Shown here in pieces: positions 1-1,281 of a DNA stretch of 5,598 nt. A program made the translations under genes and the position numbers. Source of the DNA: a virus (taxonomy: Duplodnaviria > Heunggongvirae > Uroviricota > Caudoviricetes); IMG/VR virus record IMGVR_UViG_2681813421_000010. The stretch is one strand, 5' to 3'. Under the pieces are notes generated by a model. That model did no database searches, was not told the DNA's origin, and saw only the letters and a program-made list of their open reading frames with translations. Position 1 is the first letter of the stretch; each line of letters starts with the position of its first letter.

Positions 1-267
1 TTACTCTGCAGGTGAAGTCGGCCACTCAATATCAGGTGCGGTTGATGTATCAACACGGTTCAGCAACACCCGATACTTCTTCCAGGCTTCCAGCAACGAG
101 TTTTCTTCCTCCGTTGCGATCTCCAGATCTACAGCATCCTGAAGTGGCGCAATATGCTCACTGAATTCCTGGATGTAGAACTGTGTGGTGACGGTCTTCC
201 AGCCATTCGGCTCCTGCTGTATCGAAGCATACCAGGCTATTTCAATATCGCTATGCTGCGGCAGCAT
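1..267 (-). CDS. Short Tfa-like ORF (88 aa): the C-terminal ~55 aa is a conserved tail fiber assembly protein C-terminus, the N-terminal ~33 aa is unrelated; probably a tfa remnant
   Basis: Minus-strand ORF with ATG at 265-267 and TAA at 1-3. The C-terminal part ([50 protein letters not shown]) matches the conserved C-terminus of enterobacterial prophage Tfa proteins as I recall them. The N-terminal part has no Tfa resemblance and the ORF is less than half normal Tfa length (~190 aa). Confidence 0.6.
20..92. repeat. 73-bp direct repeat, copy A (conserved tfa 3' end)
   Basis: 20..92 matches 1069..1141 (offset 1049) with 2 mismatches (positions 40 vs 1089 and 79 vs 1128); both are synonymous in the minus-strand tfa frame. 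Confidence 0.9.
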
Positions 268-275
268 TTAACCCC

Positions 276-304
276 TTGTAATTCATCGCCATAATTGATT
301 TAAT
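276..304 (+). promoter_or_regulatory. Candidate sigma70 promoter for the methyltransferase gene
   Basis: TTGTAA at 276-281 (-35-like), 17-bp spacer, TTTAAT at 299-304 (-10-like), in the AT-rich 56-bp divergent intergenic region. Sequence match only. Confidence 0.2.
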
Positions 305-323
305 TCATAAACAAAACTATAAC

Positions 324-992
324 ATGGTGAAATTAATGAAAAAAAACACACATGATGGGGCTAAAATTTACACACCACTTACCCTAAAGCTTTATGACTG
401 GTGGGTTTTGGGAGTATCAAATCGTCTTGCATGGGGATGTCCTACAAAGGAACACCTTCTTCCACACTTTCTGGAACATTTAGGTAACAACCATCTGGAT
501 ATTGGTGTTGGAACTGGGTTTTACCTTACTCACGTACCTGAGAGTAGTCTGATATCTTTAATGGATTTGAACGAAGCTAGCCTGAACGCGGCATCTACAA
601 GGGCTGGGGAATCAAAAATTAAACATAAAATTAGCCATGATGTTTTTGAACCTTATCCCGCGGCGTTACATGGTCAATTTGATTCCATTTCCATGTTTTA
701 CCTTCTTCACTGCCTGCCTGGAAATATATCTACAAAAAGCTGTGTAATACGCAATGCTGCGCAGGCCTTAACTGACGATGGAACTCTATACGGAGCCACA
801 ATTCTTGGCGATGGAGTTGTGCACAATAGCTTCGGTCAAAAACTGATGCGCATTTACAATCAGAAAGGCATCTTTTCAAACACAAAAGATTCCGAAGAAG
901 GCTTAACACATATACTCTCAGAGCATTTCGAGAATGTTAAAACCAAGGTTCAAGGTACTGTAGTAATGTTTTCCGCTTCAGGGAAAAAATAG
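324..992 (+). CDS. Class I SAM-dependent methyltransferase (Rossmann fold), prophage moron of unknown substrate
   Basis: 222-aa ORF. Motif I LDIGVGTG (GxGxG SAM-binding loop), acidic residue after beta-2 (LMDLNE), and motif II/III-like segments (FDSISMFYLLHCLP, LTDDGTLYGATI). Alternative start at ATG 336 has a GGTGA Shine-Dalgarno 5 nt upstream. Visibly AT-rich compared with the tail genes. Resembles the methyltransferase-like genes found beside tfa fragments in E. coli K-12 cryptic prophages (ybcY/yfdM type, from memory). Confidence 0.8.
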   Translation: MVKLMKKNTHDGAKIYTPLTLKLYDWWVLGVSNRLAWGCPTKEHLLPHFLEHLGNNHLDIGVGTGFYLTHVPESSLISLMDLNEASLNAASTRAGESKIKHKISHDVFEPYPAALHGQFDSISMFYLLHCLPGNISTKSCVIRNAAQALTDDGTLYGATILGDGVVHNSFGQKLMRIYNQKGIFSNTKDSEEGLTHILSEHFENVKTKVQGTVVMFSASGKK

Positions 993-999
993 CATCCAA

Positions 1000-1032
1000 C
1001 CGCAGCACGTTCTTGCTTAAGACGTGCTGCGG
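1000..1032. terminator. Strong stem-loop between convergent genes (possible bidirectional terminator)
   Basis: Perfect 11-bp inverted repeat CCGCAGCACGT (1000-1010) / ACGTGCTGCGG (1022-1032), with further pairing possible inside the 11-nt spacer. Lies between the methyltransferase stop (992) and the minus-strand tfa remnant stop (1047). A T-run follows on the minus strand only after a ~10-nt gap; no T-tract on the plus strand. Confidence 0.35.
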
Positions 1033-1046
1033 CATAATCCCAATGA

Positions 1047-1139
1047 TTACTCCCTGACAGGGTTCGTAGGCCACTCAATATCAGGTGCAGTTGATGTATC
1101 AACACGGTTCAGCAACACCCGATACTTTTTCCAGGCTTC
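1047..1139 (-). pseudogene. tfa 3' remnant (encodes [30 protein letters not shown]), fused in frame to an invertase fragment
   Basis: My own minus-strand translation of 1139 down to 1047 (stop = reverse complement of 1047-1049). Tfa homology begins exactly at the E-A-W codons. This is copy B of the 73-bp repeat. Confidence 0.7.
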
Positions 1140-1141
1140 CA
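1069..1141. repeat. 73-bp direct repeat, copy B (conserved tfa 3' end)
   Basis: See copy A; 71 of 73 positions identical. Confidence 0.9.
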
Positions 1142-1281
1142 CCACCAGCACGACAAAATGCCGCATACAGTGACCCAGTCAGTCCAGTTTCCAGACAACT
1201 AGTGCGTCACCTTTTTGAAGGCGCTTTAAAGCACGTTTTAATCCAGGTCGGCCTGTCCTTGTTCCGCTTAATTTATCTTCA
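1140..1281 (-). pseudogene. pin: DNA invertase (Pin/Gin/Cin/Hin-family serine recombinase) internal fragment; in-frame TGA; 5' end lost in the N-run, 3' end replaced by tfa
   Basis: Minus-strand translation from the gap edge gives [46 protein letters not shown]. This matches residues ~32-78 of Gin/Pin invertases as I recall them (Gin ...[43 protein letters not shown]...). A TGA sits where Arg (CGx) is expected. The catalytic-Ser N-terminus and the C-terminal helix-turn-helix are absent. Confidence 0.75.

Follow-up and report, generated by a model that had tools for sequence, protein, structure and literature searches.

The gene at positions 324-992 of the window (the whole stretch of 5,598 nucleotides analysed here) is almost certainly an intact ortholog of ybcY, known from Escherichia coli K-12 as a pseudogene of prophage DLP12, and we predict that it very probably encodes a functional enzyme. 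Its fold in the structural model and its motifs show a class I S-adenosylmethionine (SAM)-dependent methyltransferase, for which SAM binding and methyl transfer are predicted. Nothing in this is new in kind, since the gene is already in databases: RefSeq contains the identical protein (WP_122996854.1), the family is a PHROG (phrog_2132, unknown function) and the K-12 allele has a name. The literature on ybcY in E. coli treats only the K-12 pseudogene or the gene order, and the gene itself has never been studied, the apparent reason being that the reference strain carries a dead copy. This matters because the enzyme is conserved and selected, and about 70% of complete E. coli genomes encode it; ETEC H10407, O157:H7 and strains that have ompT in the uropathogen-type context are among them.

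The comparison with K-12 accounts for the status of both copies. In DLP12 of MG1655 the genes run tfaD, ybcY (pseudogene b0562), tfaX, appY and ompT, and the earlier note was thus correct in placing pseudogenized methyltransferases beside tfa fragments in K-12. The two loci share about 98% nucleotide identity through the left tfa remnant, the promoter motif, the ORF, the hairpin and the 3' end of the right tfa, as well as the order tfaX / ybcY / tfaD. They differ in a 2-bp deletion that K-12 carries in TTAATGAAAAAAAAC, where the window copy is intact; according to the alignment, the G of ATG 336 and one A were lost, which shifts the frame read from ATG 324. We thus regard the window gene as the intact ortholog and K-12 as the exception. 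Since beyond the deletion only a few substitutions are found in the rest of the K-12 gene, its inactivation appears to be recent, and putting the two base pairs back could repair it. The sites differ as well: K-12 ybcY lies in argU/DLP12 beside appY-ompT, whereas the window copy lies at a prophage end next to potB and is joined to a truncated invertase gene, and the right tfa position is occupied by a near-full-length tfaD in K-12 and by the last 34 codons only in the window.

The ORF listing of the window showed no internal stop across the 222 codons that follow ATG 324, in agreement with the undisrupted frame described from the sequence. The functional start is probably further downstream, at ATG 336, and the product would then be a single-domain protein of 218 amino acids and about 24 kDa. 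Several observations point to this start. In an alignment of 30 homologues, the methionine at residue 5 (M5) is an invariant column at which nearly all of them begin, a short N-terminal extension being present in the closest E. coli and Citrobacter sequences; the phrog_2132 profile matches residues 5-222 over its entire length (1-218 of 218, E 4.1e-156); in strain FDAARGOS_1262, ATG 324 is changed to ACG with the rest of the gene intact, and PGAP places the start at M5; and residues 1-14 are disordered in the AlphaFold model. PGAP also calls a 45-aa "hypothetical protein" (WP_001309429.1) at 937-1074 on the minus strand, a stretch that reaches from the methyltransferase 3' end across the hairpin into the beginning of the right tfa remnant. 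This protein had no match in a Pfam search and is probably a spurious call. The features of the region are collected in Table 1.

Table 1. Features in and around the methyltransferase gene (window coordinates)
Feature	Position	Strand	Remarks
Left tfa remnant (counterpart of K-12 tfaX)	1..267	-	C-terminal fragment; Caudo_TAP E 3.5e-26, HMM 75-131 of 131
Direct repeat, left copy	17..95	.	79 nt, 95% identical to 1066-1144
Promoter-like motif TTGATT-17-TATAAC	295..323	+	Ends directly at ATG 324
Class I SAM-dependent methyltransferase ORF	324..992	+	ATG, 222 codons, almost certainly the intact ybcY ortholog
Probable true CDS	336..992	+	218 codons from conserved Met; eight-A run after ATG 336
Perfect 11-bp GC-rich hairpin	1000..1032	.	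-23.9 kcal/mol, z = -5.6 vs shuffles
Right tfa remnant	1047..1151	-	Last 34 codons; Caudo_TAP E 3.4e-13, HMM 104-130 of 131
Direct repeat, right copy	1066..1144	.	79 nt, inside right tfa remnant
Pin-type serine DNA invertase remnant, part	1179..1281	-	PGAP "recombinase family protein", 72 aa (identical genome)

Positions 1-1281 are 100% identical to E. coli NZ_LR883050.1, where PGAP gives the order potB, partial tfa, WP_122996854.1, the 45-aa hypothetical ORF, partial tfa and the 72-aa recombinase remnant, followed by an invertible-type tail-fibre block, lom and J. From this gene order, a lambdoid prophage adjoining potB has the methyltransferase as its outermost gene. The left tfa remnant is located upstream of the methyltransferase gene and is transcribed away from it, and PGAP describes the remnant as "tail fiber assembly protein, missing N-terminus" over 1-174. 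That the gene sits between two decayed tfa fragments, as had been proposed, is borne out by the partial Caudo_TAP matches on both sides and by the annotation of both flanks as partial pseudogenes in the identical genome; the window thus has the synteny of the ybcY family, with flanking tfa fragments in a lambdoid prophage. The 79-nt repeat is equivalent to the conserved 3'-terminal sequence of tfa genes. We considered whether the two fragments could be the halves of an invertible segment and rejected this, the repeats being direct and not inverted. The block conserved with other E. coli prophages and phages extends over 21-1032 in Kati and CUVET19, 43-1038 in O157, 43-1120 in ev243, 21-1144 in K-12 and 241-1144 in FDAARGOS_1262, and we infer that the unit may have been shuffled among lambdoid prophages through homologous recombination in conserved tfa sequence. 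The Rfam family IS009 (RF02111, a predicted E. coli small RNA) matches 41-244 on the minus strand with 129 bits (gathering threshold 117, E 1.4e-30), and this "sRNA" family may be conserved tfa-fragment sequence.

Only the N-terminal 72 aa (VLLDGRFSVLIGYVRVSTNDQNTDLQRNAL...) of the invertase are left, the 3' end of the gene being cut at the tfa remnant and its 5' part running into a run of 67 N at 1282-1348 that stands for 364 bp of the otherwise identical genome (13282-13645 of locus L001). Among the missing base pairs are the 5' portion of the invertase remnant, intergenic sequence and 168 bp from the start of a tail-fibre gene, and the left crossover site of the invertible segment is expected there. 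That segment, a tail-fibre C-terminus plus tfa, occupies 1349-2686 (L001 13646-14983; L004 4692-6029) in the orientation of L1_E925, and in ATCC 43896 it is flipped, the two alternative tfa genes being exchanged. Since the local recombinase is a 72-aa N-terminal remnant, the inversion was presumably carried out by a Pin-type invertase of another prophage, or took place before the truncation. At 2685/2686 the tfa gene is cut 66 bp before its stop, and ORF 2225-2698 accordingly closes with ...EAWEGGP*. With an overlap of only 2 bp (AA), the window passes there into the tape-measure 3' end, after which come M, L, K, I and J. In the closest genomes the sequence to the right of this junction lies about 10 kb away on the opposite strand, and the junction was absent from the 5,426 complete E. 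coli genomes and the species-representative genomes searched. On this account we take the junction for a private inversion or else for a chimera of the assembly, formed at the tfa 3' repeat, which is conserved; it is without effect on the methyltransferase. The junction was also considered as the product of an invertase acting at a pseudo-site, but its flanks did not, by eye, resemble an invertase crossover site.

The gene has a GC content of 0.405 (GC3 0.35), compared with 0.50 for the tfa remnants and 0.56-0.59 for M, L, K, I and J. The contention that it is much more AT-rich than the tail genes holds against these, but the adjacent tail-fibre C-terminus and tfa (0.43-0.45) differ from it only slightly. 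Its distribution among phages is patchy (15 of 50,697 phage records carry it, with varied neighbouring cargo), and together with the composition this supports the reading of the gene as horizontally acquired cargo, or moron. The motif TTGATT-17-TATAAC abuts the ORF, so that translation would begin from ATG 336 on a very short leader. It was kept in every E. coli background compared, at the Citrobacter locus (91% identical) and in the Salmonella homologue P0018 (79%), where homology extends over 295-988 and thus sets in with the initial base of the -35 hexamer and stops with the ORF. The generic promoter scan did not call this motif and reported 268-295 instead, because the -10 hexamer ends in C and lacks the terminal T. 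In a genomic SELEX study of the RpoD holoenzyme (PMC3946193), the same motif is listed for the K-12 ybcY promoter, with H-NS flagged there. The hairpin lies between the convergent methyltransferase gene and right tfa remnant, and in Kati, CUVET19 and O157 the conserved block stops at 1032-1038. The plus strand has no adjacent U-tract and the terminator scan made no call; the hairpin likely serves as a transcription stop for the methyltransferase gene, the right tfa remnant or both.

Among 5,426 complete E. coli genomes, 3,832 (about 70%) carry the gene, in roughly 4,900 copies altogether; the median is one per genome and the highest number four, and all copies are at least 95% identical. It is also present in the deposited phages ev243, 2G7b, Kati, Turner and the PhiR series with at least 98.6% amino-acid identity, and the 90%-identity cluster of the intact 222-aa form contains 6,589 sequences. 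The dN/dS ratio was 0.19 against a Citrobacter copy (dS 0.24) and 0.11 against a Salmonella copy (dS 1.0); over the summed pairs of six E. coli and phage copies there were 46 synonymous changes for about 146 sites and 23 non-synonymous changes for about 508 sites. Of the DLP12-site prophage of FDAARGOS_1262 (L014 5814-8796), little is left besides the methyltransferase gene, which is intact, and ompT: a tRNA-Arg and fragments of tfa and of a frameshifted integrase gene. This strain matches the context described for UPEC strains such as CFT073 and UTI89, in which ompT is close to ybcY (preprint 10.1101/594564). The low dN/dS, the 60 invariant positions described below, the size of the cluster and the persistence in FDAARGOS_1262 indicate, as far as sequence comparison goes, that the gene is under purifying selection and retained by the host. 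The impression conveyed earlier that this copy looks functional is thus supported by the intact ORF and by selection alike. In O157:H7 NE1127 (L012 8167-10380), genes for a general stress protein, two ferritin-like proteins and a manganese catalase stand between the methyltransferase and the phage tfa, and on the other side there are an ISEc8 element, an alpha/beta hydrolase gene and ompT; with such blocks on both sides of the gene, the stretch appears as a cargo hot spot.

The methyltransferase assignment, which the earlier note had based on complete SAM-binding motifs and for which it had suggested profile searches, was confirmed: Pfam Methyltransf_12, _23, _25 and _11 all scored above their gathering cut-offs, and the protein displays LDIGVGTG (motif I, residues 58-65), LMDLN (79-83, including the acidic D81), FDSISMFYLLHCLPG (119-133) and LTDDGTLYGATI (149-160). 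In the 30 homologues (56-98% identity) 60 positions are invariant, among them D59, G61, G63 and G65 of motif I, D81, H105-D106 and D120; D81 closes strand 2, the place of the acidic residue that contacts the ribose hydroxyls in this superfamily, H105-D106 follows strand 3 and D120 is in strand 4, and these residues fit the model strands E76-81, E99-104 and E119-125. The predicted fold is a confident seven-stranded Rossmann-like methyltransferase with a two-helix N-terminal cap, and the model has the seven-stranded sheet with C-terminal antiparallel hairpin and the similarity to solved class I members that are expected of this class. The fold-level comparison proposed alongside the profile searches accordingly recovered a methyltransferase fold, but no closest characterised enzyme stood out. 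The ybcY family has in addition an invariant N-terminal motif (Y24-D-W-W-V-L...N33..A-W-x-C39) and an invariant C-terminal one (Y178-N-x-K-G-I-F-x-N186), both outside the core that aligned with solved enzymes in sequence searches. An exhaustive profile search of 1.84 billion representative proteins yielded 410 clusters (clustered at 50% identity) at E <= 1e-30, nearly all full-length, and only 1,740 at E <= 0.001, from which we conclude that the family is distinct from methyltransferases in general. According to this search and the cluster names, it is broad and includes Enterobacterales, Francisellaceae, Spartinivicinus, Acidobacteria and others. None of the family clusters had an informative name; all names were automatic, and the "UbiE" attached to distant members is an automatic JGI name.

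Homologues in Salmonella, Erwinia, Yersinia, Citrobacter and Enterobacter are monocistronic, with large intergenic gaps and unrelated neighbours. No conserved partner gene was found in eight homologue contexts from these five genera, and no operon partner pointing to a substrate among the homologue neighbourhoods; in Enterobacter hormaechei the neighbours were identical at all three places shown. Copies from E. coli, Citrobacter and Enterobacter have a higher AT content than the sequence around them, whereas in Erwinia and one Salmonella lineage the composition of the gene fits its surroundings. In Salmonella enterica (L017 and L018, 3660-7320), an island beside mutS that carries an integrase gene contains a homologue of 67% identity, and directly after this homologue comes a gene with a ricin-B-lectin domain.

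As to the substrate, a small molecule or a lipid seems to us somewhat the better choice. The structural neighbours of this kind, namely MM_2633 (3dtn), SpnL (7v6h), BelI (9fce), DhpI (3ou2), Coq5 (4obw), PmtA (8ys9), JHAMT (7ec0) and UbiG (4kdr), are only 10-21% identical, and none of them is clearly the closest; the top Foldseek match, PmtA 8ys9, has 15-17% identity and a TM score of 0.61-0.65. When the PDB was queried by sequence, the single protein and a profile of 30 sequences alike matched no more than the SAM core of JHAMT and UbiG, and this weakly. No NCBIfam family came near its cut-off, the best (CpaM, RquA and PmtA) scoring 15-17 bits against cut-offs of 175-390. Individual enzyme identities within this class were discarded: a phospholipid N-methyltransferase of the PmtA type (NF045882, 15.6 bits vs a cut-off of 390), RquA (NF038261, 16.9 bits vs 175), and the quinone-pathway enzymes UbiG, UbiE or Coq5, for which the PDB match to UbiG (E 1e-3) was confined to the SAM core. 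No ubi or men genes were near the gene in the eight homologue contexts.

Other targets were weighed against this. The product might act on nucleic acid, either as an orphan DNA methyltransferase protecting phage or host DNA from restriction or as an rRNA or tRNA methyltransferase altering translation in the lysogen, which we consider unlikely. A regular-expression search of the protein found neither the DNA methyltransferase motif IV (D/N/S)PP(Y/F/W) nor P-C, and neither a target-recognition domain nor structural similarity to DNA methyltransferases was observed, which agrees with and extends the earlier remark that a domain of this type is missing. A comparison with the PADLOC models of anti-phage defence gave nothing significant (only mad2, E 0.0031, 14.4 bits). 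Methylation of a host or phage protein, for instance a ribosomal, envelope or tail-fibre protein, would suit a class I fold, common as it is to protein methyltransferases, and a gene that adjoins tail-fibre genes in E. coli. Nevertheless, the homologues outside E. coli have no phage neighbours, which makes a tail-fibre target unlikely, no protein methyltransferase family was matched in Pfam or NCBIfam, and such enzymes were not prominent among the structural matches listed, so that we hold a protein target to be very unlikely. Proteins with this fold may also use SAM, or the fold itself, for chemistry other than methyl transfer: RquA transfers an amino group to ubiquinone, CmoA synthesizes carboxy-SAM, and SpnF/SpnL are cyclases. 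Here, conservation of the canonical SAM-binding residues is complete and follows the pattern of ordinary methyltransferases, the RquA profile gave the low score cited above, and SpnL and CmoA are only 12-17% identical, leaving this reading highly improbable.

It is also conceivable that the gene is a recently acquired neutral passenger, now without function, that hitch-hikes with selected neighbours such as ompT. The E. coli copies are all at least 95% identical and would have had little time to decay, K-12 tolerates the loss of ybcY, and there are clusters of truncated forms (e.g. P0029, 161 aa, 445 members). Against this, dN/dS was 0.11-0.19 over an inter-species dS of 0.24-1.0, full-length conservation extends over the 410 clusters with 60 invariant positions in 30 sequences, and the gene is intact both in the window prophage, which has no adjacent ompT, and in strongly eroded ones. 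We therefore judge a neutral passenger improbable.

Overall, we believe that the most plausible explanation, and a reasonably probable one, is that of an intact, functional ybcY encoding a prophage-cargo methyltransferase that forms its own unit and has a small molecule or lipid as its target. According to this proposal, ybcY would be an accessory cargo gene of DLP12/Kati/ev243-like lambdoid E. coli prophages that encodes a stand-alone enzyme. Transcription would proceed from TTGATT-17-TATAAC and would not depend on the late genes of the phage, which are encoded on the other strand; it would begin near 329-331, within a few bases of ATG 336, where translation would start with a very short leader, and would probably end at the hairpin. 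H-NS damps AT-rich foreign DNA, and it probably damps this gene. YbcY would then act alone in the lysogen, transferring the methyl group of SAM to a small, probably lipophilic metabolite or lipid, and not to DNA, RNA or protein; this is the weakest step of the proposal. More tentatively, YbcY could be a lysogenic-conversion enzyme with a host phenotype, which modifies a lipophilic host metabolite or methylates an environmental toxin; the host metabolite may be an envelope lipid, an isoprenoid quinone or a fatty-acid-like carboxylate. If this were true, a benefit to the host would explain why about 70% of E. coli keep the gene after prophage decay, and the loss of the start codon in the K-12 copy would explain why the phenotype went unnoticed. 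An enzyme that alters a lipid, a quinone or a toxin would be a further case of prophage cargo changing host physiology. For work on it there are practical handles in the likely start at ATG 336, the exact 2-bp lesion of K-12 and the compact, clonable unit of putative promoter, ORF and hairpin.

The place of the gene is the same in related phages: in ev243, 2G7b, Kati, Turner and the PhiR series it occupies the same accessory position between the tail-fibre/invertase genes and int. The neighbouring cargo differs, being an alpha/beta hydrolase and ompT in ev243, an AppY-like regulator and an OmpT-like protein in Kati, and none in the window. With the lambdoid morons lom, bor and the DLP12-linked ompT and appY, ybcY shares the character of an extra AT-rich gene in the late or accessory region, with a putative promoter of its own and a downstream hairpin, opposed to the late genes, present in only some related phages and retained by the host after prophage decay. 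Unlike these morons, which encode envelope proteins or regulators with known phenotypes, ybcY encodes an enzyme of cytoplasmic type that has no known phenotype.
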